Positions 2,391 to 63,090 are shown, counted from the stretch's first letter. The stretch is 64,000 bases of DNA from Candidatus Omnitrophota bacterium (GCA_041651035.1 JBAZKC010000002.1:120697-184696); one strand, 5' to 3'. Made by a program: numbers and translations. Notes: generated from the sequence alone by a model not told the origin.

Positions 2391-2455
2391 GATATGCTAA
2401 AATTTCCTTTGCATAATAAATTTAGTATGATATAATTTTAAGATATGCCAGAATT
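2384..2455. repeat. Two direct copies of the AAGATATGCYARAATT element. The second copy spans the GalT-like start codon. A TATAAT lies at 2431-2436.
   Basis: cctcgtaagatatgctaaaatt at 2384-2405 and taattttaagatatgccagaatt at 2432-2455. The same 22-mer recurs at 41765 and, inverted, at 44684. Confidence 0.7.
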
Positions 2456-47700: not shown

Positions 47701-48001
47701 TCGTTTTCTTCCCTCGGGGGGATACTTTAATAAAAGTGCGGAAGCCCTGGGAGGAAGCCATCTGCCAGGCTTTGTTGGCAGGAAAAAATTCTAATATGGA
47801 GTGATCCTTGTCTTTTATACCGAAACTGGATATGGCTTGCCCGCGGTTAACGTAGAATACCCACATGGGTATGCCGTATTTACCGGCGATACCGGGGAAA
47901 AAGTTGGCGAATGGCTTAGAAGAGTTGTAGTTCTCTATAACGAACTCTCCCTCTTCGTTAAGGTAATATTTTGGTTTCTTATCTTTTGGATTTTTAACCA
48001 T
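44714..48001 (-). CDS. Large cytoplasmic GH94-like glycoside phosphorylase-family protein of 1095 aa, possibly 1,2-beta-oligoglucan/cellobiose phosphorylase-like
   Basis: The N-terminal pattern EFVIENYNSSKPFANFFPG...GFRTFIKV resembles the GH94 N-terminal domain (E[YF]VI..P..W.NY.G...YFYI). The size is similar to ~1080-aa GH94 oligoglucan phosphorylases. Recalled by pattern only. Confidence 0.4.
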   Translation of the reverse strand: MVKNPKDKKPKYYLNEEGEFVIENYNSSKPFANFFPGIAGKYGIPMWVFYVNRGQAISSFGIKDKDHSILEFFPANKAWQMASSQGFRTFIKVSPRGKKTIFYEPFQNGSVNSGFNIANSMRVSSSGLTLEEDNISLGLKVKVEYFNIPNDSYAGLARIVTIKNSGRSAKKIQLLDGLPQIVPYGVNNFFLKKMSRTIEAWMNVENLDKGAPFYKLDVDPSDRPEVIHIKEGNFYLGFLPGPEKPKIIKPIVDPQCIFGPPADFSLPHEFLAANNFRYPKEQITKSKTPCAFLLFNFELSDCEEKVFCSVAGSMSSVEMLNTSLNKITAAGYLARKKEENKNIISGIESDIATVSSSRHFDLYAKQTYLDNVMRGGYPLTLSDSVFYLYSRKHGDLERDYNKFQLQPAYFSQGNGNYRDMNQNRRSDAWFNPGIKDENLIYFFNLLQADGFNPLIIKGTSFKLKEGTDLRILLKGLAGEEDILKIASFLDKLDAPPDKSAPQDKRYLTGFTPGELIFFIEENKIKLNAAYDEFIGLLISNSLKLQEAEHGEGFWTDHWAYNLDLLDSFLSLYPEKYREIFFDKRVFTFYDNIETVKPRQEKYLLRYGKVRQLHSLVSDNAKKEMIRKRTTQAHVVRTQYGLGEIYQTTLINKLLCLLATKLASLDPFGCGIEMEADKPNWFDALNGLPSLFGSSLCETFELKRLILLITRALGRADSGKVRVTEEIHNFLIGLNSLTKEYFNASQAADADYQYWDKSHSLKEGYNHKTRLGFSGKEIEMETNQLKDILNAALEKVNTGIDRSLDKKRNTYYAYFINEVVEYEPLKEPFVKPTKFIQKRLPFFLEGQMHALRLCKDINTARSLYRAIRLGELYDKKLKMYKVTAPLISQPEEIGRCRVFTPGWLENESIWLHMEYKYLLEILKQGLYKEFYEDFKNVLIPFQDPVQYGRSTLENSSFLVSSAFPDKHLHGNGFVARLSGSTAEFLEIWLTMNIGSCPFFLNEQGELNLKIEPLLAGWLFRKKEKTYTFNFLGKIQVTYYNSLRKDTFGKDKVTCKKILFNDAGGNPVEIPSNIIPAPYAQQIRSGQVNFIDIYLGK

Positions 48002-48460: not shown

Positions 48461-49903
48461 ATGGAACTTTACAACTTAACCGCGCATGAACTCTTAGGGA
48501 AAATAAAGAATAAGGAAGTATCTCCTGAAGAGATATTTCTGGCGCTTAAAAAAAGAATTAAAGAAGTCGATTGTAAAGTCAGGGCCTATGTGCGGGCTGA
48601 TAAATCAGAGGAAAGAATTCGTGAATCCAAGAACCCGAAGACGGGTTTATTAGAAGGCATCCCCGTTTCTATCAAAGACAATATCTGCACTGACAACTGC
48701 AATACCGAATGTTGTTCCAGGATACTGGAAGGATTTAAGCCGCCGTACGACGCTACCGTGATCAAAAAGCTTAAAGAAGCAGGCGCGGTAATACTGGGTT
48801 TTAAAACCAATATGGATGAGTTTGCCTTCGGGTCTTCTACTGAGAATTCATTCTTTGGTTCCACGCGCAATCCCTGGGACCTGGAACGCGTGCCGGGAGG
48901 TTCATCAGGAGGTTCCGCGGCAGCAGTGGCAGCTAATGAAGCCATTTTAGCCTTAGGCTCTGATACTGGAGGCTCAATACGCCAGCCGGCTTCTTTTTGC
49001 GGAGTGGTGGGGCTTAAGCCAACGTATGGCAGGGTTTCCCGTTATGGCTTAATTGCTTTTGCCTCCAGCTTAGACCAAATTGGGCCTATTACTAAAGATG
49101 TGCGAGACAATGCCCTCCTTATGAATTGTATTTCCGGATATGATCCTATGGATTCTACGTCTGTAGACACAAATGTCCCTGATTATACCCAGGCATTAGT
49201 CAACGATATAAAAGGCATTAAAATAGGGATACCTGAAGAATATTTTGTCGCGGGGCTTGATCCTGAAGTAAGAAGCGTGCTGGAAGAGTCTATCCATAAA
49301 TTAAAAGCCCTGGGGGCTGATTTTAAAGAAATTTCTTTGCCGCATACTGAATACGCGGTTCCGGTTTATTATATTATCGCCACTGCCGAGGCCAGTTCTA
49401 ACCTGGCCAGGTTTGATGGTGTCCAGTATGGGCTTAGGGTAGACAAGACGCGTAATCTTATCGATATGTATAAGAATACGCGCGCGGAAGGATTCGGCGA
49501 AGAGGCAAAACGAAGGATAATCCTGGGGACGTTCGCGCTCTCTCATGGCTATTATGATGCCTATTATCTGCGCGCGTTAAAAGTCAGGACGCTTATAAAG
49601 CAGGATTTTGACGCGGCATTTAAAGAGCTTGACTGCATCCTTACCCCTACTTCTCCTACGCCGGCATTTAAGATCGGAGAAAAAACAGCAGACCCGTTAA
49701 AAATGTACCTTTCTGATATCTATACCATATCCGTTAACCTGGCGGGGATCCCGGCAATATCTGTTCCTTGCGGCTTTACTAAAAAAGGCCTGCCTGTGGG
49801 GTTACAGATCTTAGCCAGGCCCTTTGCCGAAGAAATGCTTTTCAGGGTTGCTCATACATATGAGCAGAATACCTGCTGGCACAAAATGGAACCGAAGATC
49901 TAA
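48461..49903 (+). CDS. gatA: Asp/Glu-tRNA(Asn/Gln) amidotransferase subunit A
   Basis: Amidase signature [13 protein letters not shown]. Confidence 0.95.
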
Positions 49904-49904
49904 G

Positions 49905-51344
49905 ATGGATTATGAAGTTGTCATAGGATTGGAAGTGCATTTACACCTGAATACCAGGACAAAGGCGTTCTGCGGATGTTCTACGGAATTCGGCAAAGAG
50001 CCGAACTCTGGAGCCTGCCCTGTCTGCCTTGGTTTTCCCGGGTCTTTGCCTGTTTTGAATAAAACTGCCCTGGATTACGCGATTAAAGTCGCCCTTGCCT
50101 TAAATTGTAAAGTGCAAGAGTATACCAAGTTCGACCGGAAAAATTATTTCTATCCGGACCTGCCCAAAGACTATCAGGTCTCGCAATATGACCTGCCTTT
50201 ATCCAGGGACGGTTTTCTGGATATTTATTTACCCGATGCCAGGGTCAAACGCGTGGGGATACATCGCGTGCATATGGAAGAAGACGCCGGTAAACTTATA
50301 CATAAAGACACAGTAAGCCTGGTAGATTTTAACCGGGCCGGCGTGCCATTGCTGGAGATAGTGAGTGAACCACAGATGAATTCCGCGCAGGAAGCTTACG
50401 AATACCTGACTGTTTTAAAAAGCATCATTCAATACTTAGACGTTTCTGATTGCGATATGGAAAAGGGGTCTTTACGCTGCGACGCCAATATTTCCTTAAG
50501 GAAAAAAGGGGCTTTAGAATTAGGCACTAAAACAGAATTGAAGAATATGAATTCTTTTAAGGCGATAAAAGAGGCGCTTGTTTTTGAAATAGAGCGGCAA
50601 GGCGGGCTGCTTGATTCCGGAAAACAGATCATCCAGGAAACAAGATTATGGGACCCCAAGGAATTAAAGACCATTTCGATGCGCACAAAAGAGGAAGCGA
50701 AGGATTACCGTTATTTTCCTGAGCCTGACCTGCCGCCGTTTATAATCAAACCCGATAAGATCAATGAGATTAAAAAGGCTATTCCGGAATTACCCAGAGA
50801 GAAAATGCTGCGTTTTATAAAAGATTACGGGATACCGGAATATGATGCCAAGATCCTGGTTTCTTCCAAAAAAGATGCTGATTTCGCTGAAAAATGCCTG
50901 AAAGAATTCCCTGATACAAATAAGAAGCCGGTTGCCAACTGGTTGATCGGGCCGTTGGCTGGGGCAGCAGGCAATAGGGCCTGCGCGATCTCTGAACTGC
51001 GGATCTCACCCGCCGACCTTATCGGATTGATCGATCTGGTAGAAAAGAAACAGGCTATCTCTAATCTTACCGGCAAGTCGGTATTAGAAGATATGCTTGA
51101 TACCGGGGAGCCGGCCCAGAAAATAATTACAGAAAAAAACTTGGCCCAGATCTCAGATTCCGGAAGCTTGAATTTAATTGTTGAAGAAACGATCAAGGAA
51201 AATCCCGCCTCAGTAAATGATTACAGGTGCGGAAAGGTTAATGCCCTGATGTTTTTAGTGGGCCAGGCAATGAAAAAGAGCCGGGGTAAGGCAAATCCTA
51301 AAGCAGTCCAGGAGATATTAAAGCGGAGGCTAGCTGATGCGTAG
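49905..51344 (+). CDS. gatB: Asp/Glu-tRNA(Asn/Gln) amidotransferase subunit B. The ORF track is over-extended; the start is at MDYEVVIGLEVH.
   Basis: GatB N-terminal motif VIGLEVHLHLNT and C-terminal YqeY-like domain. Confidence 0.9.
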   Translation: MDYEVVIGLEVHLHLNTRTKAFCGCSTEFGKEPNSGACPVCLGFPGSLPVLNKTALDYAIKVALALNCKVQEYTKFDRKNYFYPDLPKDYQVSQYDLPLSRDGFLDIYLPDARVKRVGIHRVHMEEDAGKLIHKDTVSLVDFNRAGVPLLEIVSEPQMNSAQEAYEYLTVLKSIIQYLDVSDCDMEKGSLRCDANISLRKKGALELGTKTELKNMNSFKAIKEALVFEIERQGGLLDSGKQIIQETRLWDPKELKTISMRTKEEAKDYRYFPEPDLPPFIIKPDKINEIKKAIPELPREKMLRFIKDYGIPEYDAKILVSSKKDADFAEKCLKEFPDTNKKPVANWLIGPLAGAAGNRACAISELRISPADLIGLIDLVEKKQAISNLTGKSVLEDMLDTGEPAQKIITEKNLAQISDSGSLNLIVEETIKENPASVNDYRCGKVNALMFLVGQAMKKSRGKANPKAVQEILKRRLADA

Positions 51345-52620
51345 AAAACTTATTATTATTTTAGCTTTATGCCTTGCCGGGGTAGCTGTCTTCTCGCTGG
51401 CAAATTCAGGCGTAGATAAAAAAAACAGGGACGCGTTGTACAGGCAGGTTGAGCTCTTTTCGGATTCATTAGCCATCGTGCAATCGGAATATGTCGATGA
51501 GGCAAAACCCAAAGACTTAATATACGGGGCATTAAAAGGAATGATCTCTTCTTTGGACCCGCATAGCCAATTTCTTGATCCGGATACGTATAACGAACTA
51601 AAGGTTGATACGGAAGGAAAATTCGGCGGTTTAGGCATAGAGATCACCATAAAAGACAGCCTTTTGACGGTAGTGACGCCCATAGAAGACACGCCTGCCT
51701 GGAGAGCGGGGATAAAAACCAACGACAGGATAGTTAAGATCAATAATGAACTGACCCGCGACATGACTCTTGCCGACGCGGTAAAGAAAATGAGGGGTAA
51801 GCCCGGAGAAGCGGTGAACATCTCTGTCTTAAGGGAATCGGAAAAGAAGATCCTGGAATTCAAGATCGTGCGGGATATTATTAAGATAAAGGATGTAAAA
51901 GAGGCGCGGATACTGGAAGACGGGATTGGATATATCCGCTTGGTTGAGTTTAGGGAAAATACCTCCCAGGATTTAAATACGGCTTTAGAAAAACTAAGCA
52001 AAGCCGGCATGAACGCCCTTATTTTGGATCTGCGTAATAATCCGGGAGGATTGTTGGATGTAGCGGTCAAGGTATCTGAAAAATTCATACCTAATGGCAA
52101 GTTGATTGTCTACACCAAAGGCAGGCAATCTTCTCAAAACCTGGAATTTTCCTCTCATTCGAATCATCCTATTATAAATATGCCCATGGCAGTGTTGATC
52201 AACGAGGGCTCTGCTTCGGGAAGCGAAATAGTCGCGGGCTGCCTCAAGGATTATAAGCGCGCCATAATCGTAGGTGCTAAGTCATTCGGCAAAGGCTCTA
52301 TACAGACAGTTATACCTTTAAGCGATGGTTCAGCGCTAAGGCTGACTACGAGTAAATACTTCACACCGCTCGGTCAGATAATACACAATAAGGGTGTCCA
52401 GCCGGATATCGTCGTGGAAGAACCCCAAAAGGAGATTACCGCGGGTCAGGAACAGAAAACAGGAAAACCGGAAGAAATATTCGAAGAAATAGAAAAAAAG
52501 GTGAGGGCGGGAAAGCCCAATAAACCCGACAAACCCTTTGATTATAAATCCGATAATCAACTTATGCGTGCCGTGGATATTCTAAAGGCCGCTAAATTCT
52601 ACAAAGATACTAAAAGCTAG
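51337..52620 (+). CDS. ctpA: Carboxyl-terminal processing protease (S41)
   Basis: PDZ domain and S41 catalytic region GSASGSEI...K. Confidence 0.85.
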   Translation: MRRKLIIILALCLAGVAVFSLANSGVDKKNRDALYRQVELFSDSLAIVQSEYVDEAKPKDLIYGALKGMISSLDPHSQFLDPDTYNELKVDTEGKFGGLGIEITIKDSLLTVVTPIEDTPAWRAGIKTNDRIVKINNELTRDMTLADAVKKMRGKPGEAVNISVLRESEKKILEFKIVRDIIKIKDVKEARILEDGIGYIRLVEFRENTSQDLNTALEKLSKAGMNALILDLRNNPGGLLDVAVKVSEKFIPNGKLIVYTKGRQSSQNLEFSSHSNHPIINMPMAVLINEGSASGSEIVAGCLKDYKRAIIVGAKSFGKGSIQTVIPLSDGSALRLTTSKYFTPLGQIIHNKGVQPDIVVEEPQKEITAGQEQKTGKPEEIFEEIEKKVRAGKPNKPDKPFDYKSDNQLMRAVDILKAAKFYKDTKS

Positions 52621-52629
52621 CGCGCCGTT

Positions 52630-53433
52630 ATGAAAAAAGACTCAAAATACAAGATCGCTGTAGGGATCCTGATACTTATCATTATTGTATTGGGATTTTT
52701 TCTCGTCTCTAAGCCTAAAAAAGCAGCCGTAAGGGTCCCTGCTGTTGTAAAAGGAAGGATCGCCATTATTATTGATGATTTAGGCTATAACTTGAATAAC
52801 CTGCGCGTATTAGAGCAGATCAGGCGCCCCTTGACCTGTTCGGTATTGCCGAATTTAGAGTATTCGCGCAGGGCTGCTGAAGAGCTGCACGCGCGGGGAT
52901 ATCACGTGATCCTGCATTTGCCGATGGAGCCACAGGAGAAATACGGGTTGGAAAAAAATACCATTTTAACCAGCATGGATGAAGAAACTATCAGAAGTAT
53001 CCTCAGGCAGGATCTATCCAGCATTGTTTATGCCGAAGGGGTTTCAAATCATATGGGTTCGCGTGCCACAGAAGACCCGGCCACGATGGAGGCGATATTT
53101 AAGGAATTAAAGAAGAGGCGCCTTTATTTTTTGGATAGCTATGTATCTTCCAAATCTGTTTGTTCTCAATTAGCCGCTAAAATAAGCCTGGGCTTTGCCA
53201 AAAGAGACGTGTTTTTGGATAATAAAAGCGAACCTGCTTATATAAAACAGCAGATCTATAAATTAAAATCCAGGGCCGGATTTTACGGCTATGCCATTGG
53301 CATTGGCCATGACCGGAAGGCCACTTTAGAGGTATTAAAAGAAATGATCCCGGAATTAGAAAAAGAGGGCTACAGGATGGTTTTTGTTTCAGACGTAATT
53401 AAACAGGGTGCTCCTAAGAGGTTGAAGAGATGA
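52630..53433 (+). CDS. Divergent polysaccharide deacetylase family protein (YibQ-like)
   Basis: RIAIIIDDLGYN...VLPNL...HLPMEP motifs. Confidence 0.7.
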   Translation: MKKDSKYKIAVGILILIIIVLGFFLVSKPKKAAVRVPAVVKGRIAIIIDDLGYNLNNLRVLEQIRRPLTCSVLPNLEYSRRAAEELHARGYHVILHLPMEPQEKYGLEKNTILTSMDEETIRSILRQDLSSIVYAEGVSNHMGSRATEDPATMEAIFKELKKRRLYFLDSYVSSKSVCSQLAAKISLGFAKRDVFLDNKSEPAYIKQQIYKLKSRAGFYGYAIGIGHDRKATLEVLKEMIPELEKEGYRMVFVSDVIKQGAPKRLKR

Positions 53434-54413
53434 ACGTATTGGGGATTGAAACATCTTGCGACGAAACTTCAGTATCGGTAGTAGAGAATGGCAGGAAAGT
53501 CCTTTCTAATAAGGTAAGCTCAAGCCTGGCATTTCATAAGAAATATGGCGGGGTTGTCCCGGAAATAGCTTCCCGCATGCAATTGGAAACGATAACAGAA
53601 GTAGCTGAGGCGGCCGTAAAAGAATCGGGGGTCACTTTAAAAGGTATCGGCATGGTCAGCGTTACCAGCGGCCCTGGCCTTTTAGGTTCTCTATTAACGG
53701 GGATATCATTTGCGAAGTCCGTAAGCCTGTCTTTAGGCGTCCCTTTGCTGGGAGTTAATCATGTTTACAGCCATATATACGCTAATTTTCTAAACAGGCA
53801 GGCTATAATGTTTCCTTTTGTAGCGTTGGTTGTATCAGGGGGGCATACGAGTTTATTCTGTGTAAAGGATTTTGATAAGATGGAAACCCTGGGAGAGGCT
53901 CGGGATGACGCCTGCGGGGAGGCGTTTGATAAAGTGGCTAAGATCTTAGGGCTGGGGTATCCGGGCGGCCCCATTATCGAGAAATTAGCCAAAGAAGGGG
54001 ATAGTAATAAAATAAAATTCCGTTGTTCAGGCACCGAAGGAGAATTGGATTTCAGTTTTAGTGGAATAAAAACCGCGGTATTATATTTAACTAAAGGCAG
54101 GCAATTAAGCCTCGCGGATAAAAAAGACATTGCCGCTTCTTTTCAGAAAGCAGTCGTAGATGCGCTTATTAGAAAGTCTTTATTGGCCTGTAAAATAAAA
54201 AAAGTAAACAAGATAGTTGTCGGCGGAGGGGTGGCGGCGAATAATAAATTAAGAGAAACGCTCCGGGAGGCGGCTAAAGACGCGGGCAGGGAATGTTACT
54301 TTCCTTCCAAAGAATTATGCATGGATAACGCGGCAATGGTAGCGGGGCTCGGCTATCAATTATTCAAGAAAGGTTTCAGGTCGGGTTTGGGCTTGACCGC
54401 CCAGTTAGACTAA
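53430..54413 (+). CDS. tsaD: tRNA N6-adenosine threonylcarbamoyltransferase
   Basis: MNVLGIETSCDETSV N-terminus; Kae1/TsaD family. Confidence 0.9.
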   Translation: MNVLGIETSCDETSVSVVENGRKVLSNKVSSSLAFHKKYGGVVPEIASRMQLETITEVAEAAVKESGVTLKGIGMVSVTSGPGLLGSLLTGISFAKSVSLSLGVPLLGVNHVYSHIYANFLNRQAIMFPFVALVVSGGHTSLFCVKDFDKMETLGEARDDACGEAFDKVAKILGLGYPGGPIIEKLAKEGDSNKIKFRCSGTEGELDFSFSGIKTAVLYLTKGRQLSLADKKDIAASFQKAVVDALIRKSLLACKIKKVNKIVVGGGVAANNKLRETLREAAKDAGRECYFPSKELCMDNAAMVAGLGYQLFKKGFRSGLGLTAQLD

Positions 54414-54448
54414 AATATACTTCGCCTTAAGGAAGATCGGAGGTAAAC

Positions 54449-54892
54449 ATGCTTACGGACAATCAGATAATCTTACGCTTAACGTTATCTGTGCTCTTAA
54501 GCGGGCTTATCGGCATTGAACGCCAATGGCACCGCCGCACCGCGGGACTGCGCACCCATATTCTGGTTTGTCTCGGGTCTTGCCTTATCATGTTGACATC
54601 GTTGTATCTTTTTGATATATATAAAGATCAGGTCCCTCTGGATCCCGCGCGTATCGCTGCCGGAGTCATTACCGGTATCGGCTTTCTGGGAGCAGGCGCG
54701 ATCATCAGGGCAAGAGAAGGCGTAAAAGGGCTTACTACTGCCGCCAGCCTTTGGGTGGTCGCCGGGATTGGTTTAGCCATAGGATGCGGATTCTGGAAAG
54801 CGGGAGTTTTTACTGCCATACTGTCTTTGGTTGTTCTTCTGTTTTTAGGGCACATAGAAACAAGGATGTTCGGCAAAGAAGAAAGGTGGTGA
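54449..54892 (+). CDS. mgtC: MgtC/SapB-family membrane protein
   Basis: RLTLSVLLSGLIGIERQWHRRTAGLRTH signature. Confidence 0.8.
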   Translation: MLTDNQIILRLTLSVLLSGLIGIERQWHRRTAGLRTHILVCLGSCLIMLTSLYLFDIYKDQVPLDPARIAAGVITGIGFLGAGAIIRAREGVKGLTTAASLWVVAGIGLAIGCGFWKAGVFTAILSLVVLLFLGHIETRMFGKEERW

Positions 54893-54896
54893 TACC

Positions 54897-55400
54897 ATGG
54901 CTTTTAAGAAGAAATCGGAAGAGAAGATTCTTGATGTTGATGCTGCGATGCAGGGAAGCCTGGTTTTTAAGGATCCGGTAAGCATACGTATCAACGGCAA
55001 ATTTGAAGGAGACCTGGAAACCAGGGGTAATTTAACCATCAGTGCTACGGCAATAGTAGTGGCCGATATTGTAGGCGACAATATCATTATCGGAGGCAAG
55101 GTCAAGGGAAGAGTGACTGCCAAAGAAAGGCTGACCCTTTTACCTACGGCGGTAGTTGAAGGCGATGTGTATCCGGCGAAATTGAATATTGCCGAAGGCG
55201 CTATACTGGAAGGCAACTGTTTGATGCTCCATGATTTCTTAAACCCTGAAGAACTGGCCAGATACCTGGAGGTAGATTTGAATTCTATTATGGAATGGGC
55301 TAATTCAGGCAAGATGCCGGGGAATAAAGAAGGGAGCAACTGGAAGTTTGAAAGAAAGGCTATTGATTCCTGGGTTGCCTCCGGCAAGATAGAAAAATAG
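54897..55400 (+). CDS. Bactofilin-domain protein fused to a C-terminal HTH_17 DNA-binding domain
   Basis: Bactofilin beta-helix repeats (RINGKFEGDLETRGNLTISATAIVVADIVGDNIIIGGKVKGRVTA...). The C-terminus NPEELARYLEVDLNSIMEWANSGKMPGNKEGSNWKFERKAIDSWV fits HTH_17. Confidence 0.65.
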   Translation: MAFKKKSEEKILDVDAAMQGSLVFKDPVSIRINGKFEGDLETRGNLTISATAIVVADIVGDNIIIGGKVKGRVTAKERLTLLPTAVVEGDVYPAKLNIAEGAILEGNCLMLHDFLNPEELARYLEVDLNSIMEWANSGKMPGNKEGSNWKFERKAIDSWVASGKIEK

Positions 55401-55427
55401 CTAATAGGCGGCTGATAAGATAAACTT

Positions 55428-55739
55428 ATGAGAGAAGAAAAACTTTTAACCGTAAGGGATGTTTCTTTGATTTTAGGCATTTCAGAAAAAGAGGTCTTAG
55501 ACTTAGCTGAAAGCGGAGCTATCCCCGCGTATAAGATCGGCGGGATATATTTAAGGTTCAAAAAGAATCAGGTACAGGAATACAAATCATCAGGCAAAGC
55601 CTCTTTACATAAAGCCGATACCCCTCTAAGATACCCGCTTAAAGACAAGCTAAGCGACTTCTGCTATTTTAATGATTTTTATATTTTAACCAGCCTGATA
55701 ATAATTTTACTGTTAGCCGTCATATTCTGGGGGTACTAA
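55428..55739 (+). CDS. HTH_17 DNA-binding protein with a C-terminal transmembrane helix
   Basis: HTH_17 region LTVRDVSLILGISEKEVLDLAESGAIPAYKIGGIYLRFKKNQVQEY. C-terminal transmembrane helix ILTSLIIILLLAVIFWGY. Confidence 0.6.
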   Translation: MREEKLLTVRDVSLILGISEKEVLDLAESGAIPAYKIGGIYLRFKKNQVQEYKSSGKASLHKADTPLRYPLKDKLSDFCYFNDFYILTSLIIILLLAVIFWGY

Positions 55740-55740
55740 G

Positions 55741-56409
55741 ATTTCTAATAAAGGTTTCTGCGACTTAGGCTTTGCCAAGGTCGATACAGACAGGCAAAAA
55801 CGTAAAGGGCAGGCAGAGGTAATATATTGCCCGGGTAAATCCAGGGAGCATCTTAAGAAAATATCCCTGGAATTACTAAAGAATAAACAGGATTTATTGC
55901 TTACCAGGTTAAGCAAGGATAACTTCGCGTATCTTAAGAAATTGATCCCCCGGTTAAAATATAACGTTTTGGCCCGGATAGGCTATTATTTACAAAGAAA
56001 AAAAGAGCTAAAGAAAGGCCTGGTTATAGTTATGTGCGCGGGGACATCGGATATACCCGTAGCTGAAGAGGCGTTTGTCACGTTAGAAATAATGGGTAAC
56101 CGCGCGATAAAACTTTACGACGTCGGAGTGGCAGGCGTACACCGCCTTATGAAGAATATGGACATGCTGAAAAAAGCGCATGTGGTTATTGTGGCCGCGG
56201 GGATGGAGGGGGCTTTAGCGAGTTTGGTAAGCGGGCTGGTAAGCTGCCCTGTGGTCGCGGTGCCTACGAGCTGCGGTTATGGCGCTAATTTCGGCGGACT
56301 CTCCGCGTTATTGACCATGCTTAACAGCTGCTCTCCGGGAGTAGCGACGGTAAATATCGATAACGGATTCGGCGCGGGGTATCTGGCGAGCCTGATCAAT
56401 AATAAATAA
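55741..56409 (+). CDS. larB: LarB-like protein (PurE/AIR-carboxylase fold, COG1691). The true start is unresolved: no ATG/GTG/TTG precedes the conserved N-terminal motif.
   Basis: In-frame translation from 55741 gives ISNKGFCDLGFAKVDTDRAKRKGQAEVIYCPGKSREHL, a LarB-type N-terminal motif. It is followed by the PurE-like core GLVIVMCAGTSDIPVAEEA...VVIVAAGMEGALASLVSG. The ORF track begins only at a TTG at 55897. An in-frame stop lies at 55714-55716. Confidence 0.6.
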   Translation: MSNKGFCDLGFAKVDTDRQKRKGQAEVIYCPGKSREHLKKISLELLKNKQDLLLTRLSKDNFAYLKKLIPRLKYNVLARIGYYLQRKKELKKGLVIVMCAGTSDIPVAEEAFVTLEIMGNRAIKLYDVGVAGVHRLMKNMDMLKKAHVVIVAAGMEGALASLVSGLVSCPVVAVPTSCGYGANFGGLSALLTMLNSCSPGVATVNIDNGFGAGYLASLINNK

Positions 56410-56413
56410 TACG

Positions 56414-56818
56414 ATGAAGAGTGGAATAACCTTAAAAGAAGCGATAAAGTTTCATGGGCACTTAGGGCCATATCTGGTTTTAGGTATTTTAGCCGGCCTC
56501 CTGGCCTTAAAGAAATTAAGATGCAAGAAATATTTCGGTTTAAAAGTAATAGTCCAGGGGGCTCTTAAGAAACCAAAATCCTGCCTTATCGACGGCTTGC
56601 AGCTATCCACAGGAGCAACTTACGGCAAAGGAAATATTAGAAAATTGGATGGGCGCGAAATAAAAATAGATTTCCGAGGCCCTGCCGGATATAAAAAAGT
56701 TACCCTTAAGTTAAGAAAAGCCCTTATACAGAGGTTAGAAAAAACCCAAACCCATAAAGATTCGGAATTATTAGCAAAACAGTTATATAATACTGACCCC
56801 TTAAAACTGTTTATATAA
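56414..56818 (+). CDS. FmdE/FwdE-family domain protein
   Basis: FHGHLGPYLVLG (HGH motif with the usual Cys replaced by Gly) and CLIDGLQLSTGATYGKGN match the FmdE fold signature. Confidence 0.6.
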   Translation: MKSGITLKEAIKFHGHLGPYLVLGILAGLLALKKLRCKKYFGLKVIVQGALKKPKSCLIDGLQLSTGATYGKGNIRKLDGREIKIDFRGPAGYKKVTLKLRKALIQRLEKTQTHKDSELLAKQLYNTDPLKLFI

Positions 56819-56820
56819 AC

Positions 56821-58149
56821 ATGGCGCTTTCAGGATTAGATATTTATAAGTTATTGCCTAAAACTAATTGCCGCGAATGCGGATTCGCGACCTGCCTTGC
56901 TTTTGCCATGGCCTTGGCTAAAAAAACGGTAAATATTGACAAGTGCCCTTTTTTAAGCGCGGAGGCGAAGAAAATATTAGAGGCATCCAGCCTTCCGCCT
57001 ATAAAGTTAGTTTCTGTCGGCGCGGGAGAAAATAAGTTAGAGATCGGCAGTGAAACTGTAATGTTCCGCCACGAAGAGAAATTCTATCACCCCAGCGGCC
57101 TGGGTTTTATTATTGAAGACAGCTTAAGAGACCTGGAAATAAAACAGAGGTTGGAAAGAATAAACAACCTGCGATTTGAACGCATAGGGCAATTTCTTAA
57201 TGTGGATCTTGTGGCGATAAGGCAGAACAAGGGGGTAAAAAGATTTGTTGAAGCGGTAAAGTTAGTTTCAGATAATACTTCCTTAGCGCTTGTTTTGATG
57301 AGTGATGATCTGGAAGGGTTGAGGCAGGCGTTAGAAATAACCAAACATAGGAGGCCGTTAATTTACCGCGCGACTAAAGATAATGCCGCTTTAATTGCCG
57401 GCCTGGCAAGCGCCTATAATGTGCCGTTGGTAGTTTCAGGGGAAGACCTGGAAACAATTTCTAATCTTACCCAAGAGTTAAATAAACAAGGAGTAAACGA
57501 GTTGGTCCTGGATACGGGATTAAAGCCTATTCCGGAGAAAATCCGGGATTTAACTCAAATAAGAAGGCAGGCTCTTAAGAAATCAAACCGCAGCCTGGGG
57601 TATCCGGCTTTGGTAATAGTAGGCAGGCAAGACCCTTACACGGAGGCGATGGAGGCCGCTACTTATATTTCAAAATACGCCGGGATTGTTTTAATGGAAG
57701 GAATAGAGGCCTGGCAGGTTTTGTCGCTTTTGACCTTAAGGCAGAATATCTATACTGACCCGCAGAAACCATTGCAGATCGAACCGAAACTTTATCCTGT
57801 CGGACAGGCAAATGAAAGATCTCCCGTATTAGTTACCACTAATTTCTCCCTTACTTATTATACTGTCTTAGGCGAGGTAGAAGCAAGCAAGGTGCCCGCG
57901 CATATCTTAACTATTGATACAGAAGGCATGTCAGTGCTTACTGCCTGGGCAGCGGAGAAGTTTACTCCGGATAAAATCACCGATTTTATAAATAAATCCG
58001 GGATCGGCAGCTCGGTTTCGCACAAAAGGCTGATCATTCCCGGATATGTAGCGGTAATGAGCGGAGACCTGGAAGAAAAATCCGGCTGGCAAGTAACTGT
58101 CGGACCTAAAGAGGCGGCCGGCATACCGGCGTTCTTGAAGAATTTGTAA
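56821..58149 (+). CDS. acsC: Corrinoid iron-sulfur protein large subunit (acetyl-CoA decarbonylase/synthase gamma subunit)
   Basis: N-terminal [4Fe-4S] domain LPKTNCRECGFATCLAFAMALA...CPF; length of about 440 aa. Confidence 0.85.
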   Translation: MALSGLDIYKLLPKTNCRECGFATCLAFAMALAKKTVNIDKCPFLSAEAKKILEASSLPPIKLVSVGAGENKLEIGSETVMFRHEEKFYHPSGLGFIIEDSLRDLEIKQRLERINNLRFERIGQFLNVDLVAIRQNKGVKRFVEAVKLVSDNTSLALVLMSDDLEGLRQALEITKHRRPLIYRATKDNAALIAGLASAYNVPLVVSGEDLETISNLTQELNKQGVNELVLDTGLKPIPEKIRDLTQIRRQALKKSNRSLGYPALVIVGRQDPYTEAMEAATYISKYAGIVLMEGIEAWQVLSLLTLRQNIYTDPQKPLQIEPKLYPVGQANERSPVLVTTNFSLTYYTVLGEVEASKVPAHILTIDTEGMSVLTAWAAEKFTPDKITDFINKSGIGSSVSHKRLIIPGYVAVMSGDLEEKSGWQVTVGPKEAAGIPAFLKNL

Positions 58150-58150
58150 C

Positions 58151-60076
58151 ATGGAAAAATTCAAGGTTACATTTTATCCGGATAATAAAAGTATAACGGT
58201 AGAGAAGGATACGGCTATTCTTTCTGCCGCCATTTCCTGTGGAGTTTATATAAATGCCGTTTGCGGAGGAGATGGCGTCTGCGGCAAATGCAAAGTTATC
58301 GTTAAGAAAGGTAAGGTTATTACCCAGCCAAACGTTTCCGTAACCCAGGAAGAGAAAAATAATCATGTTTATCTTTCCTGCCTGACAACCATACATAGTG
58401 ATCTGGAAGTAGAAATCCCTCCGCAATCGAGATTAACTTTTGGTTCGATAAGCCCGGAGGAATTGGAAAAAAGGCTTAAAGGCCTATATTCCGAAGCCGA
58501 AGAAATTGATCCGGTCTCACCCAAAGAAACAGGAGGCTTTACCCATTCTCCATTGGCTACAAAACTTTATCTGGAAATTCCCCAACCGGACCTTAATGAT
58601 AGAATAAGCGACCTGGAGAGATTATACCGCGAGATCCGTAAAACCGTAGACATACCGTCTATGCAGACAGGATTAAGCAATATCAGGCAGCTTGGCGAAT
58701 TATTAAGAGACTCTGACTGGAAAGTCACGGTTACTTTAGGCAAAAGAAACGATACGGTAGAGATCGTCTTTATTGAACCGGCGGATACATCAGGCAATAA
58801 TCTCGGCCTTGCTTTTGATATCGGCACTACCACAATTTCAGGGCAGTTGATAGACTTAAATAACAAAAAGATCCTGGGGACAAAGGCAGCTTACAACAAA
58901 CAGGCAAGTTTCGGCAGTGATGTAATTACGCGGATCATCTATGCCAAAGAAGAAAACGGCCTGGATAAACTGCATAATGCCGTAACCTACACGATGAACC
59001 AGATAATAATGGAATTGACGCGGGAGCACAGTGTAGACCTCAAGGATGTTGCCTGCGTATTATGCGCGGGTAATACTACGATGATCCACCTTCTGTTGAA
59101 TATTGACCCGACATATATCAGAAGGGAACCTTATGTGCCTACGGGTAATTTTCTGCCTGTTGTTCGCGCCGCGGAAGCAGGCATAAATATAAACCCCCGT
59201 GGGCTTTTATCATGTGTCCCGGGGGTCTCCAGCTATATTGGAGGAGACACAACCGCCGGGGTGTTGTCAAGCGGCCTGTATAAGGAAGAAGACCTAAGTA
59301 TCCTGATAGACATAGGGACAAACGGGGAGATCGTATTGGGAAATAAAGATTTCTTTGTGGCTGCCGCCGCTTCTGCCGGCCCCGCTTTTGAAGGAAGCGG
59401 GCTTACCTGCGGCATGCGCGCCAGCCGCGGAGCGATCCAGAAGATAAAAATTCATCCTAAGGACCTTAGCGTAGATTTCAACACGATCGAAGGAGCTAAA
59501 CCGCGAGGAATATGTGGTTCGGGGTATATTGAGATGCTGGCTTCGATGTTATCCTGCGGCTTACTTGACAAGAACGGTAAAATAAAAGGAATAGGGCATA
59601 AGCGCGTCCGCGGCGGGAAGGAAAACAGGGAATTCGTGGCCGTGTTTAAAGAAGAATCCGGGACAGATGCCGATATAGTTATTACAGAAGCTGACATTGA
59701 AAACTTAAAGTGCGCTAAAGCCGCTATTTATTCCGCGGTCTCTATATTGGCTAAGCGCATGGATCTGAACTTATCCCAAATAAAGAAATTCTTCATCGCC
59801 GGAGGATTTGGAACTTATCTGGATATAAGCAGCGCGATTAGAATAGGATTACTTCCGGACCTAGACAGGACAAGGTTCTTTTTTATCGGTAACAGCGCTC
59901 TAGCGGGAGCGCGCGCGATGCTTATTTCTAACCAGGCGATGAAAGAAGCGGAAAGAATAGCAGGGAAGATCACTTATCTGGAATTATCAGTTGAGCCGGG
60001 ATACATGGATGAGTATGTGGCGGCCCTGTTTTTTCCGCACACGGACTTATCGCGTTTTCCCAGCGTTGATCTTTAA
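58151..60076 (+). CDS. Reductive activator of the corrinoid iron-sulfur protein (RACo; 2Fe-2S ferredoxin + ASKHA ATPase, DUF4445)
   Basis: N-terminal plant-type ferredoxin motif CGGDGVCGKC...C. About 640 aa with a C-terminal ASKHA-like domain. Sits between acsC and cooC. Confidence 0.75.
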   Translation: MEKFKVTFYPDNKSITVEKDTAILSAAISCGVYINAVCGGDGVCGKCKVIVKKGKVITQPNVSVTQEEKNNHVYLSCLTTIHSDLEVEIPPQSRLTFGSISPEELEKRLKGLYSEAEEIDPVSPKETGGFTHSPLATKLYLEIPQPDLNDRISDLERLYREIRKTVDIPSMQTGLSNIRQLGELLRDSDWKVTVTLGKRNDTVEIVFIEPADTSGNNLGLAFDIGTTTISGQLIDLNNKKILGTKAAYNKQASFGSDVITRIIYAKEENGLDKLHNAVTYTMNQIIMELTREHSVDLKDVACVLCAGNTTMIHLLLNIDPTYIRREPYVPTGNFLPVVRAAEAGININPRGLLSCVPGVSSYIGGDTTAGVLSSGLYKEEDLSILIDIGTNGEIVLGNKDFFVAAAASAGPAFEGSGLTCGMRASRGAIQKIKIHPKDLSVDFNTIEGAKPRGICGSGYIEMLASMLSCGLLDKNGKIKGIGHKRVRGGKENREFVAVFKEESGTDADIVITEADIENLKCAKAAIYSAVSILAKRMDLNLSQIKKFFIAGGFGTYLDISSAIRIGLLPDLDRTRFFFIGNSALAGARAMLISNQAMKEAERIAGKITYLELSVEPGYMDEYVAALFFPHTDLSRFPSVDL

Positions 60077-60828
60077 TGGGATACGTTATTGCCTTAGCTG
60101 GTAAAGGCGGCACCGGCAAGACTACGATTGCCGCGTTATTGGTAAGGATAATTAAAGAAAAAAAACTGGGTTCTATATTAGCGGTGGATGCTGACCCCAA
60201 TAGTAATCTTTGTGAATCGCTGGGGTTGGAATCAAAAGAAACTATAGGAAGCATTTTAGACGATATTACCGCTCATCCGGAGAAAATACCCTCCGGCATG
60301 CCTAAGGACAGGTTCATTGAATACCAGGTCCAGACTACGATCATAGAAGGCAATGGTTTTGATGTCTTAACCATGGGCAGGCCGGAAGGCCCGGGCTGCT
60401 ATTGCTATGTCAATAATATTTTAAGAAATATACTGGGTAAATTGATCAATGATTACCAGTATATTATCGTGGATAATGAAGCGGGGCTTGAACATTTTTC
60501 CCGGCGCACCACAAAAAGCGCCGATGCTTTAGTAGTTATTTCCAGCCCTACGTACGCGGGGTTAAGGGCGGCGGAGAGAATAAGCGGGTTAGCCAAAGAA
60601 TTAGGCATTAAAACCAAAAAGAACCTTTTGATCGTAAATTGTTGTGATAAGGAAATTGAGAGAGAAAGAATAAAAAGCCTGGATTTGGATTATTTAGGGC
60701 TCCTGCCGCTGGATAAGCATATAGAGCAGGCCGGTATAAGCGGGAATTCATTGCTGGAGCTGAAAGAAAACTCGCCAAGCTTGATAGCTCTTCGTAAAAT
60801 AGGAGATAAGATATGGCAATGCAATTAG
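60076..60828 (+). CDS. cooC: CooC/AcsF-family nickel-insertion accessory ATPase (MinD/ParA fold)
   Basis: Deviant Walker A AGKGGTGKTT and a conserved CxC (GCYCY) motif. Confidence 0.8.
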   Translation: MGYVIALAGKGGTGKTTIAALLVRIIKEKKLGSILAVDADPNSNLCESLGLESKETIGSILDDITAHPEKIPSGMPKDRFIEYQVQTTIIEGNGFDVLTMGRPEGPGCYCYVNNILRNILGKLINDYQYIIVDNEAGLEHFSRRTTKSADALVVISSPTYAGLRAAERISGLAKELGIKTKKNLLIVNCCDKEIERERIKSLDLDYLGLLPLDKHIEQAGISGNSLLELKENSPSLIALRKIGDKIWQCN

Positions 60829-61775
60829 CGTTAGAAAAATGGCCTGGCCGGGTCTATGAAGTAACCATAGGTGCTACTAAAGAAGAAGGGGGCAGCCGAA
60901 CGCATACCGTTAAGATCGGCGGCGCGCAGGCGCTGCCTTTCTTGTTTGACGAAGGCGCCATACCGAATAAGCCTTCTATCGCCTTTGAGATCTGTGATAT
61001 TCCGCCTGCTGATTGGCCGCAGGAATTAGTAAAGTGGTACGGCTCAGCCTTAAATGACCCGCTGGCCTTAGCGGAAAAATGCGTTAAGGAATACAAAGCG
61101 CAGATCTTATGCTTAAGGTTGCAGGGAGCGCATTCCGATTTCGGGGATAAAAGCCCTGAAGCGGAAGCAAAACTGGTAAGCCAATTATTAAAAAAAGTAA
61201 GTGTGCCCCTAATTATCCTCGGCAGCGGAGATGACGCTAAAGATAATCTGGTATTGCCTGCCTGCTGTGAAGCGGCTAAAGGAGAAAGATGTTTAGTTGG
61301 CAGCGCTGTACAGGATAATTATAAAACACTGGCTGCAGCGGTATTAGCGGACGGCCACAATATTATCGCTGAATCGCCTATAGATATAAATATTGCCAAG
61401 CAGTTGAATATCCTGATCTCAGATATGGACCTGCCTCTGGAGCGTATTGTAATAAACCCCACTATCGGCGCCTTAGGTTATGGCCTGGAGTACGCATATT
61501 CCATAATGGAGCGGGCTAGGCTTGCGGCATTATCAGGAGATAAAACAGTGGCCTCTCCGTTTATATGTTTTACCGGACAGGAAAGCTGGCGAGCCAAAGA
61601 AGCCAAGGCGGCTCAAGAAGAATTCCCCTCCTGGGGCCCTGAATCAGAGCGCGGCATAATATGGGAGACAATTACTTCGGTTGCCTTAATTCAGGCAGGA
61701 GCGGAGTTATTGGTTATGCGCCACCCCAAAGCAATCCAAAAAGTTAATGAGTATATAGATAAATTAATGAAATAG
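60813..61775 (+). CDS. acsD: Corrinoid iron-sulfur protein small subunit (acetyl-CoA decarbonylase/synthase delta subunit)
   Basis: TIM-barrel AcsD/CdhD-like sequence of about 320 aa; genomic context. Confidence 0.8.
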   Translation: MAMQLALEKWPGRVYEVTIGATKEEGGSRTHTVKIGGAQALPFLFDEGAIPNKPSIAFEICDIPPADWPQELVKWYGSALNDPLALAEKCVKEYKAQILCLRLQGAHSDFGDKSPEAEAKLVSQLLKKVSVPLIILGSGDDAKDNLVLPACCEAAKGERCLVGSAVQDNYKTLAAAVLADGHNIIAESPIDINIAKQLNILISDMDLPLERIVINPTIGALGYGLEYAYSIMERARLAALSGDKTVASPFICFTGQESWRAKEAKAAQEEFPSWGPESERGIIWETITSVALIQAGAELLVMRHPKAIQKVNEYIDKLMK

Positions 61776-61786
61776 GGGATTTAAAA

Positions 61787-62572
61787 ATGTTTATAATCGG
61801 CGAATTGATCAATGGTATGTATCAAAATATCGGCAAGGCGATAAAGGAACGGGATAAATCCGTTATCCAGAAGTGCGCGCTTCTCCAGGTTAAATCAGGC
61901 GCTGACGCTTTAGATATAAATTGCGGGCCTGCTTCCCGGCAGCCGGATTCCGATATCCAATGGTTAGTTGAGGTTATACAGGAAGTAACGGATAAACCCT
62001 TGGCCCTGGATTCCAGTAAACCGCAGGTCATTGAATCCGGGTTTAAGGTTGCCAGGAATAAAGTAATTATTAATTCTACCACTGCCGATGCGGATAAACT
62101 GGATATTTTAGTGCCTATGGCAAGAGAACATAATGCCAGGCTCATAGGATTGACCATAAGTGCTAAAGGCATACCTCAGAATAAAGACCAACGCCTGGAA
62201 TTGGCTGCTACGATCGTAGCCAGCTGTATTGATAAAGGTTTTCCCGTTGAAGACCTCTACCTTGACCCTATAGTATTACCGGTAAATGTCGCCCAGGCAC
62301 AGATGAAGGACATTTTGGAATCCATACGCGAATTTAAGATTATCTCTGATCCTTCCCCTAAAACTATAGTCGGCTTAAGTAATGTTTCACAAGGCGCCTG
62401 CCTGAGGAGCCTGATCAACCGCACGTTTCTTACCTTAGCGGCCGGCTTTGGCCTGGACGCGGCGATATTAGACCCTCTGGATCAGGCTTTAATGGACGCC
62501 TTAATTACCTCTGAACTGATTTTAAATAAACACATATACTGTGATTCGTATTTAGAGGCATACAAAAAATGA
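61787..62572 (+). CDS. acsE: Methyltetrahydrofolate:corrinoid/iron-sulfur protein methyltransferase (pterin-binding MeTr)
   Basis: 261 aa; pterin-binding-domain motifs GADALDIN...D and SNVS.G; genomic context. Confidence 0.8.
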   Translation: MFIIGELINGMYQNIGKAIKERDKSVIQKCALLQVKSGADALDINCGPASRQPDSDIQWLVEVIQEVTDKPLALDSSKPQVIESGFKVARNKVIINSTTADADKLDILVPMAREHNARLIGLTISAKGIPQNKDQRLELAATIVASCIDKGFPVEDLYLDPIVLPVNVAQAQMKDILESIREFKIISDPSPKTIVGLSNVSQGACLRSLINRTFLTLAAGFGLDAAILDPLDQALMDALITSELILNKHIYCDSYLEAYKK

Positions 62573-62955
62573 CACGCAGAAAGATCTTGAGGCATATTTT
62601 TAAATTCCACGGCATAGCAGAAAGCCTCCAATTTGCCGTAAAGGGGATCATTTATTTATTCTTATTTCATCGCAATATGCGCATAATCTTCATATTCGGG
62701 GCAGCGACATTCATCCTGGGGCTATGTTTTCATTTGGAAGGGATCCAACTCGTCTGTCTCTCTATTACTATAACCATGGTTTTCATGGCAGAGATATTTA
62801 ATACTTCTATTGAGATGCTGATGAATATGTTCACCACTAAATACCGCACCAGGATAAAGCTGATAAAGGATATCGCCGCAGCCGTGGTGTTGTTGACTTG
62901 TTTAAACGCTTTAGTTGTAGGATACGCGCTTTTCGTAAAAAAGTTGTTTAATTAA
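62569..62955 (+). CDS. dgkA: Diacylglycerol kinase (prokaryotic DgkA family membrane protein)
   Basis: About 125 aa with 3 transmembrane segments. The AEIFNTSIEMLMN motif matches the DgkA E..N(S/T).IE signature. Confidence 0.7.
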   Translation: MTRRKILRHIFKFHGIAESLQFAVKGIIYLFLFHRNMRIIFIFGAATFILGLCFHLEGIQLVCLSITITMVFMAEIFNTSIEMLMNMFTTKYRTRIKLIKDIAAAVVLLTCLNALVVGYALFVKKLFN

Positions 62956-63012: not shown

Positions 63013-63090
63013 CGGCGGAGTAGCTCAGCCTGATAGAGCACGCGGCTCATACCCGCTTGGTCGGTGGTTTAAATCCACTCTCCGCCACCA
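63013..63090 (+). tRNA. tRNA with CAT anticodon (elongator Met or lysidine-modified Ile2), with a genomically encoded CCA
   Basis: Cloverleaf read by hand: acceptor ggcggag/ctccgcc; D-arm tagctcagcctgatagagc; anticodon loop ctCATac; T-arm ggtggtttaaatccacc; 3' acca. The anticodon stem lacks the three G-C pairs of initiator tRNA. Confidence 0.8.

Follow-up and report, generated by a model that had tools for sequence, protein, structure and literature searches.

The classical acs clusters of the Wood-Ljungdahl pathway (Moorella/Desulforudis type) follow the order cooS-acsB-acsC-orf7/RACo-cooC(acsF)-acsD-acsE, tabulated in canonical form as cooS-acsB-acsC-X-cooC-acsD-acsE (PMC8671834). Partial and complete versions of the pathway have been described in Gorgyraia and Velamenicoccia (Seymour et al., PMC10066038). 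In Candidatus Gorgyraea atricola, a member of the Gorgyraeaceae (UBA10183), the genes lie on one contig with AcsE (58581-59444) next to AcsD (59458-60411) and apart from AcsB (81871-84048), CooF (85338-85859) and CooS (85864-87780), and reductive acetogenesis was put forward as its electron sink (Williams et al. 2021, PMC8542988 and its supplement). Here, we analyzed a 64,000-nt stretch from a Candidatus Omnitrophota bacterium (GCA_041651035.1 JBAZKC010000002.1:120697-184696; hereafter the window, with positions counted from its first nucleotide). Eight genes at positions 55,741-62,955 encode a LarB, an FmdE-like protein, the large and small subunits of the corrinoid iron-sulfur protein (CFeSP; AcsC and AcsD), its reductive activator RACo, a CooC-type ATPase, the methyltransferase AcsE and a DgkA-type kinase. 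An earlier note, made from the sequence alone, had described them as a compact methyl-transfer operon with no subunit of carbon monoxide dehydrogenase (CODH) or acetyl-CoA synthase (ACS) in cis.

The two genes in front of acsC have their closest described counterparts in other systems. The lar operon of Lactiplantibacillus plantarum (larA-larB-larC1/C2-larE) serves the cofactor called nickel-pincer nucleotide (NPN). LarB of the window is ~57% identical to the L. plantarum protein (7MJ0; counted from the printed alignment) and has equivalents of Glu180 and Cys221 (L. plantarum numbering), which, following the structural literature on LarB, we take to be the catalytic residues and neither of which varies among the clade's 67 LarB sequences. 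As in that operon, larC (LarC1+LarC2, or LarC1 alone) follows larB in a sister Omnitrophota clade, whereas in the window the larC position is held by the FmdE-like gene. The statement in the earlier note that neither larC nor larE stands beside larB agrees with the model scans, which gave no LarA, LarC or LarE match among the window open reading frames (ORFs) scanned (NCBIfam and Pfam; some ORFs Pfam only). The FmdE-like protein resembles single-domain FmdE/PF02663 proteins such as B8FYU2_DESHY (PDB 2GLZ; Axelrod et al. 2010): it consists of the N-terminal domain only, shares the FHGH, the second Cys and the Asp/Gln/Thr motif, and has relatives that adjoin metal transporters. It differs from them in an invariant Gly at the Cys of FHGHxC and, in the window's clade, in a location between larB and acsC rather than by fmd/fwd genes or transporters.

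We read this locus, with a probability of roughly 0.7, as part of a vertically inherited compact gene string whose core represents one half, the corrinoid/methyl-transfer half, of an acs cluster that is split, with the ACS partner encoded elsewhere and larB a neighbour by descent. The identities of the genes given in the earlier note were all right: hidden Markov models (HMMs) confirmed LarB, FmdE, AcsC, RACo/AcsV, AcsD, AcsE and DgkA, and the CooC-type protein was recognized by a structure match (Table 1). All eight ORFs lie at the coordinates first given, and the gaps from larB to dgkA are +4, +2, +1, -1, -16, +11 and -4 nt, matching the range of -16 to +11 nt reported for them. AcsC combines an N-terminal [4Fe-4S] Cys motif (CxxC...C...C, visible in the translation) with a CdhD-type domain, and RACo comprises 2Fe-2S (Fer2), linker, middle and C-terminal ASKHA ATPase domains. 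Against the AcsV model NF040756, RACo scored 656 bits, below the cut-off of 800, in a full-length match (1-632 of 632), which we read as probably reflecting a divergent lineage, not a different family. AcsE, a pterin-binding TIM barrel, exceeds the cut-off of the MeTr model PRK07535 and remains below that of the narrower model NF040758 (177 bits; cut-off 370). No curated HMM matched the CooC-like protein above its cut-off. Its deviant Walker A motif (GKGGTGKT) and its GPGCYCY motif (CYC, the CXC nickel motif) are both aligned to CooC1 of Carboxydothermus (3KJE), the best solved relative. With the acsD-adjacent CooC of Acetoanaerobium the protein shares 42% identity, versus 34% with the other CooC of that organism, and only this difference and the position between RACo and acsD bear on an assignment as AcsF rather than CooC.

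Table 1. Features of the locus and its conserved surroundings in the window
Feature	Coordinates	Strand	Evidence
larB, NPN-cofactor carboxylase/hydrolase, 222 aa if ATT 55741 is the start	55741..56409	+	NF033503 equivalog 285 bits (cut-off 175), full model
FmdE-family protein, N-terminal domain only, 134 aa	56414..56818	+	PF02663 58.7 bits (cut-off 22.9); PDB 2GVI E = 6.5e-8
acsC, corrinoid iron-sulfur protein large subunit	56821..58149	+	PRK04165 579 bits (cut-off 306); PF04060 53 bits; PF03599 349 bits
RACo/AcsV, ATP-dependent reductive activator of corrinoid protein	58151..60076	+	PF00111, PF17650, PF17651, PF14574, all above cut-off
CooC/AcsF-type P-loop nickel-insertion ATPase	60076..60828	+	CooC1 3KJE, E = 4e-21
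acsD, corrinoid iron-sulfur protein small subunit	60813..61775	+	NF003376 420 bits (cut-off 280); PF03599
acsE, methyl-tetrahydrofolate:corrinoid/iron-sulfur protein methyltransferase (MeTr)	61787..62572	+	PRK07535 293 bits (cut-off 259); PF00809
dgkA-type prokaryotic diacylglycerol/undecaprenol kinase	62569..62955	+	PF01219 (DAGK_prokar) 86 bits
tRNA, anticodon CAT	63014-63090	+	ARAGORN (tRNA-Met(CAT)); Rfam RF00005 59 bits
Conserved upstream backbone: gatA, gatB, S41 protease, polysaccharide deacetylase, tsaD, mgtC, bactofilin-HTH, HTH_17/TM protein	48461..55739	+	Pfam matches
HTH_17 (excisionase-type) protein, ~100 aa, C-terminal transmembrane segment	55428-55739		
Bactofilin fused to second HTH_17 domain, upstream of the HTH_17/TM gene	54897-55400		

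The five-gene order acsC-RACo-cooC-acsD-acsE and the domain make-up of its products are those of the classical acs cluster, and the order (acsC-X-cooC-acsD-acsE) corresponds to the 3' half of the canonical one. Unlike in the classical cluster, however, cooS and acsB are not adjacent, and the module sits among housekeeping genes, with larB and the fmdE-like gene before it and dgkA and a tRNA gene after it. For comparison, the 80 best AcsC relatives were taken from one-genome-per-species collections, each with up to 10 kb of flank (loci labelled L###). A tblastn search with AcsB from the Acetoanaerobium acs cluster, verified against solved ACS structures, gave no match in the 64-kb window or in the 80 related loci (+/-10 kb), and no large ORF of the window was recognized as AcsB or CooS in Pfam and NCBIfam scans. 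The claimed absence of a CODH/ACS subunit in cis thus holds for the 64-kb window, and neither acsB nor cooS lies within 10 kb of acsC in the 80 relatives. Nor is this an ordinary ACS cluster cut by the window's edge, with acsA or acsB just outside: beyond the tRNA come genes for an EF-hand protein and a PAS protein, followed by tilS and ftsH. In G. atricola, AcsB and CooS lie ~20 kb from acsD on the same contig, whereas none is present in the 55 kb upstream of larB here. The canonical half-order, together with the AcsB and CooS of G. atricola, makes ACS/CODH genes elsewhere in the genome the best and simplest reading, by gene-order logic and by analogy with a relative at the family level.

Two divergent relatives carry ~5.7 kb between acsD and acsE (L064:9914-15592 and L066:12435-18380), in which acsB or cooS was suspected to be hidden. 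By inspection of translated ORFs alone, the inserts appear to hold genes for several pilin-like proteins, one STAS-like protein and one large membrane protein, among others.

The relatives also bear on the origin of the window and on the conservation of its gene order. Nearly all of the 80 are Candidatus Omnitrophota metagenome-assembled genomes (MAGs) or carry the label uncultured Planctomycetales. A tree built from five backbone proteins has L003, labelled GWA2_41_15, as the sister of the window, a genome that the supplement of Seymour et al. 2023 places in Gorgyraia/Gorgyraeaceae (GTDB UBA10183); the source is a Gorgyraeaceae-type Omnitrophota genome. Almost all relatives share the order gatA-gatB-S41 protease-deacetylase-tsaD-mgtC-bactofilin/HTH-HTH/TM-larB-(fmdE)-acsC-RACo-(cooC)-acsD-acsE-(dgkA), followed by tilS-ftsH (HTH, helix-turn-helix; TM, transmembrane). 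The order from gatA to acsE is kept in ~70 related loci, and gatC also belongs to the backbone (gat(C)AB), as seen in the gene-called loci of clade A. The adjacency of larB(-fmdE) and acsC, for which a comparison across related genomes had been proposed, is conserved across a large clade. The eight genes are indeed tightly packed, as the earlier note had it, but the packing is not special to them: from gatA (48461) to dgkA, 16 co-directional genes follow one another with gaps of <=35 nt. The boundaries of the eight-gene operon are therefore arbitrary, set within a longer array that is just as compact, and since the tight spacing runs across so many genes, it is not evidence of shared function.

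The association of larB with the acs genes comes apart in both directions, which speaks against the functional tie between LarB/FmdE and CFeSP/ACS maturation suggested earlier. Two relatives (L086 and L172) retain the entire backbone as far as larB-larC, beyond which there is no acs gene. In three others (L045, L051 and L079), the HTH/TM gene is followed by acsC without larB and fmdE (around position 10000 of each locus); L045 and L079 keep acsC, RACo, acsD and acsE without cooC, and the contig of L051 ends within RACo, before the places where cooC, acsD and acsE would be expected. Moreover, acsC lies behind trp genes in L029, L040, L049 and L054, with RACo and acsD also downstream in L049 and L054. 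By comparison, the HTH_17/TM gene always precedes larB, also at loci without acs genes (L085:9022-9989, L086:9015-10000, L087:9019-9986, L088:8998-9965, L089:5211-6178 and L076:8188-9155; 55428-55739 in the window), with a 4-nt overlap between the pair in the LarC clade.

What follows larB differs between lineages: full LarC, LarC1 only, the FmdE-like gene, or nothing. In the sister clade, LarC stands directly behind LarB in 10/10 Omnitrophota-type contexts examined, none of them relocated. It is full length (LarC1+LarC2) in L085, L086, L088, L089 and L170, consists of LarC1 only in L076, L087, L171 and L172, and is cut by the contig start in L075. This makes LarB one member of an ancestral larB-larC pair lying in front of the acs module, rather than an orphan that the acs genes recruited. 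The FmdE-like gene occupies the LarC slot in 31 of 86 loci and never occurs together with LarC. On the backbone tree, there is a single LarC/FmdE switch between two clades, after which one large subclade and L027 lost fmdE; in ~35 loci larB is retained but neither gene fills the slot. This change from LarC to FmdE is the only novel element of the region.

The steps of such a system would be as follows, as far as family membership allows them to be predicted. AcsE would transfer methyl groups between methyl-tetrahydrofolate and the corrinoid that AcsC/AcsD carry in the Co(I) state, and whenever Co(II) arises and drops out of the cycle, RACo would reduce it again with ATP and its 2Fe-2S centre. 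Nickel would be loaded by the CooC-type ATPase into a partner nickel enzyme, probably the acetyl-CoA synthase AcsB (with or without CooS/CooF) from another part of the genome. LarB is a genuine first-step enzyme of NPN synthesis and, in our reading, a neighbour by descent. The ancestral arrangement was probably HTH/TM-larB-larC in front of the acs module, and in the window's clade the small FmdE-family metal-binding protein occupies the larC slot.

Several points weigh against our reading of a split acs cluster with larB as an inherited neighbour. We infer the presence of acsB and CooS in this genome only from the family relative and from gene order. The gene cooC is missing in some related loci (L045, L079 and ~10 others that keep larB), which means that the model's nickel-insertase component does not apply everywhere. 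LarB is conserved, with its catalytic Glu and Cys kept, in ~65 loci without LarC nearby, and descent as a neighbour leaves its partner unexplained. In addition, transcription units are not resolved by promoter and terminator scans: promoter-like sites number 44 versus 30.3 expected (standard deviation 5.7), but these are simple consensus matches, none of which marks a clear unit boundary, and terminator-like sites are at chance level (20 versus 18.6 expected).

One alternative, which we regard as unlikely, is an in-place replacement of LarC, in which the FmdE-like protein takes over metal delivery beside LarB, and LarB feeds a route to a pincer-type cofactor, or a related pyridinium one, that does not need LarC. 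The conservation of LarB equals that of GatA or AcsC, with a median identity to the window of 70-72% in the window's own clade (without LarC) and 63% in the LarC clade; it is under strong purifying selection. LarC and the FmdE-like gene never share the slot and are separated by one clean switch in the backbone tree; yet this pattern tracks phylogeny and counts as one event only. Among the matches listed, Omnitrophota-type LarC clusters number only about 28, compared with thousands of LarB relatives, and all ten LarC contexts have it in the slot, which also favours replacement. On the other hand, larE is not adjacent to larB even in the LarC clade. The lar genes are thus dispersed, LarC may be elsewhere in the genome, and a dispersed lar pathway is the default assumption. 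The FmdE-like gene is also dispensable beside LarB, as the ~35 loci with neither gene attest.

The properties of the FmdE-like protein itself bear on the same alternative. An assignment of this gene to an unrelated family was rejected by its PF02663 score (Table 1). The Cys-to-Gly replacement in the FHGHxC motif noticed earlier is real: the protein reads FHGHLGP, with Gly in 120/120 close homologues. Hence, the ligand set of His, His, Cys and a second Cys is incomplete, with Gly for the first Cys and C57, the second Cys ligand, kept; H14, H16, C57, D60, Q63, T69 and H114 are invariant. In solved members of the family, the metal site is formed by His-His-Cys-Cys of the N-terminal domain, with mixed Zn/Ni occupancy in the Desulfitobacterium protein (PMC2954224). 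Retention of three of these four ligands and of the invariant His114, in a domain that binds Zn/Ni elsewhere in the family, would suit a metal-delivery factor. Co-transcription with fmd has been reported for only 13 family members, most genes adjoining metal-ion transporters (PMC2954224), and the annotated genes of the window and of the related loci include no fmd/fwd gene.

The Gly variant forms a broad subfamily, with 265 cluster representatives at E <= 1e-10 and HGHxG in 135 of the 150 best. Ten long HGHxG fusion proteins (representatives P0431, P0452, P0472, P0482, P0419, P0455 and P0441 among them) carry an IU-nucleoside hydrolase domain in five cases (P0419 just below the Pfam cut-off), an ABC ATPase in one, HycI in one and the FmdE domain alone in three. 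HycI is a hydrogenase maturation protease. A metagenome scan seeded with a 4-sequence alignment yielded 79 loci of the subfamily outside the Omnitrophota, whose recurrent neighbours are ABC ATPases (11), ZnuA-type binding proteins (8), NikR (5), ribbon-helix-helix (RHH) proteins and energy-coupling factor (ECF) S-components. These neighbours, and the fusions to HycI or nucleoside hydrolases, are in favour of a metal-related role and to that extent of LarC replacement; against it, none of the 79 loci has a lar gene, or an acs gene, within 7 kb. The FmdE-like gene is best described as encoding a small protein with a putative role in Ni/Zn handling; only in the window's clade does it lie between larB and acsC, and a weak nickel theme remains for it. 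The fuller version of the swap, in which a LarB-derived cofactor (nickel-pincer or related) would be made by a LarC-independent route, with the FmdE-like protein as metal-delivery factor and the cofactor user possibly among the conserved neighbours, including the acs module, we consider decidedly doubtful.

A further alternative, which also seems quite unlikely, is that the module serves mainly one-carbon supply rather than acetogenesis. ACS would then run in the acetyl-CoA-cleaving direction to methyl-tetrahydrofolate, or the corrinoid methyl would go to a methionine-synthase-type acceptor, as proposed for Dehalococcoides. Dehalococcoides mccartyi, with its incomplete Wood-Ljungdahl pathway (acetyl-CoA cleavage for methyl groups), has in common with the window a CFeSP module without adjacent CODH. 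Dehalococcoides is not known to have AcsE (MeTr) or CooS, whereas the window has AcsE and its family member G. atricola has CooS. The suggestion draws on the two acs-less relatives, in which a split cobalamin-dependent methionine synthase (MetH) lies between larB-larC and tilS-ftsH (L086:12549-15565 and L172:6714-9753), where the acs module lies elsewhere. It consists of a 205/209-aa gene weakly similar to the MetH activation domain and a 799/800-aa core (S-methyl_trans, Pterin_bind and B12-binding). The acs module and the split MetH are analogous in function, both being methyl-tetrahydrofolate/corrinoid systems with a reductive activator. The substitution is found in two loci only, however, and the shared position may be coincidence. 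Partial Wood-Ljungdahl pathways without CODH and formate dehydrogenase have been reported in Omnitrophota (PMC10066038), and the Dehalococcoides precedent is cited in PMC9324843. In the other direction, G. atricola, with CooS, CooF and AcsB, is the organism for which reductive acetogenesis was proposed (PMC8542988), and the direction of flux is not readable from sequence.

The possibility offered in the earlier note that the module serves a methyltransferase other than ACS is disfavoured by the canonical acsC-X-cooC-acsD-acsE order, by the AcsF-like CooC and by the published AcsB/CooS in the family. Its main idea, that LarB and/or the FmdE-like protein are accessory factors for ACS or CFeSP maturation, is very improbable: it has for it the larB(-fmdE)-acsC adjacency across a large clade, the nickel theme of the locus (LarB, the FmdE-like metal binder and CooC) and the joint lack of larB, fmdE and cooC in L045 and L079, which keep acsC, RACo, acsD and acsE (as well as the lack of larB and fmdE in their sister L051), but in L086 and L172 larB-larC remains although no acs gene is present, the acs module does without larB in L045, L051, L079, L029, L040, L049 and L054, the Acetoanaerobium acs cluster and the published canonical cluster table (PMC8671834) have no lar or FmdE gene, no literature joining LarB with CFeSP was found, and the adjacency is no tighter than that of unrelated upstream genes.

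With regard to the individual genes, the identification of the first gene as canonical PurE was rejected, the purE model TIGR01162 giving only 38 bits (cut-off 150) compared with the LarB score in Table 1. The start of larB is unusual. There is no ATG, GTG or TTG between the upstream stop (55714-16) and TTG 55897, although the match to the LarB model begins as early as residue 14 in the frame opening at 55741. In nearly all homologous loci, larB has an ATG one codon upstream of 55741, where the window has AAG (55738-40). The identical 222-aa protein of NCBI (P0001) starts at ATT 55741, and a GGGGG run is located 7 nt before this codon. Either the weak ATT start is really used or the MAG consensus contains an error. 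The T-to-A change that removes the ATG also makes the TAA stop (55737-39) of the upstream HTH/TM gene.

At the other end, dgkA and the tRNA gene close the operon, as first described. Both are unrelated passengers, and dgkA is a variable one, present in only part of the related loci. Positions 1 and 72 of the CAT-anticodon tRNA pair (G-C), and it is therefore not an initiator. The tRNA gene is two genes upstream of tilS (L081:996-1961, just past the window end), which encodes the lysidine synthetase that converts tRNA-Ile2(CAU), and the tRNA may be tRNA-Ile2 rather than tRNA-Met. This downstream PP-loop gene was also considered as a possible LarE and ruled out (187 bits for TilS versus 21 bits). 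Apart from the tRNA, the Rfam scan recovered nothing; no cobalamin or NiCo riboswitch was detected.

Throughout the window (1-64000), almost every gene is encoded on the + strand, each 2-kb bin has a positive GC skew, and the cumulative skew climbs without a reversal. Such a pattern is consistent with a segment of the leading strand in a compact genome with strong strand bias. Two very large ORFs precede the backbone. The first (41915-44659, + strand, 914 aa) has no Pfam or NCBIfam match, and the second (44714-48001, 1095 aa), one of the few minus-strand genes of the window, has only a weak partial match to GH149 beta-1,3-glucan phosphorylase. Farther upstream, two tandem galT-type (galactose-1-phosphate uridylyltransferase) paralogues (2445-3473 and 3473-4474) adjoin gap, pgk and tpi. 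The segment 17065-20231 encodes an acyl-CoA dehydrogenase, EtfB and an EtfA with an N-terminal ferredoxin-like 4Fe-4S domain, a layout typical of electron-bifurcating Etf systems.

Taken as a whole, the region adds little to what is known of this family: Wood-Ljungdahl genes have already been reported for it, the genes are correctly named in public annotation, and the split acs cluster is a minor arrangement variant. In these small, single-strand-biased genomes, tight spacing and conserved adjacency extend over many unrelated genes and are thus weak evidence of shared function. The alternation of LarC and the FmdE-like gene behind LarB nevertheless provides a testable candidate for the long-unknown role of the large FmdE subfamily, in nickel or zinc handling and possibly in a LarC-independent assembly of a pincer cofactor; new NPN-dependent enzymes are now found by such neighbourhood logic (PMC13524815). 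Finally, the acs module and the split MetH occupy the same slot in different lineages, which hints that the role of the module in these reduced genomes may be methyl supply as much as acetogenesis.

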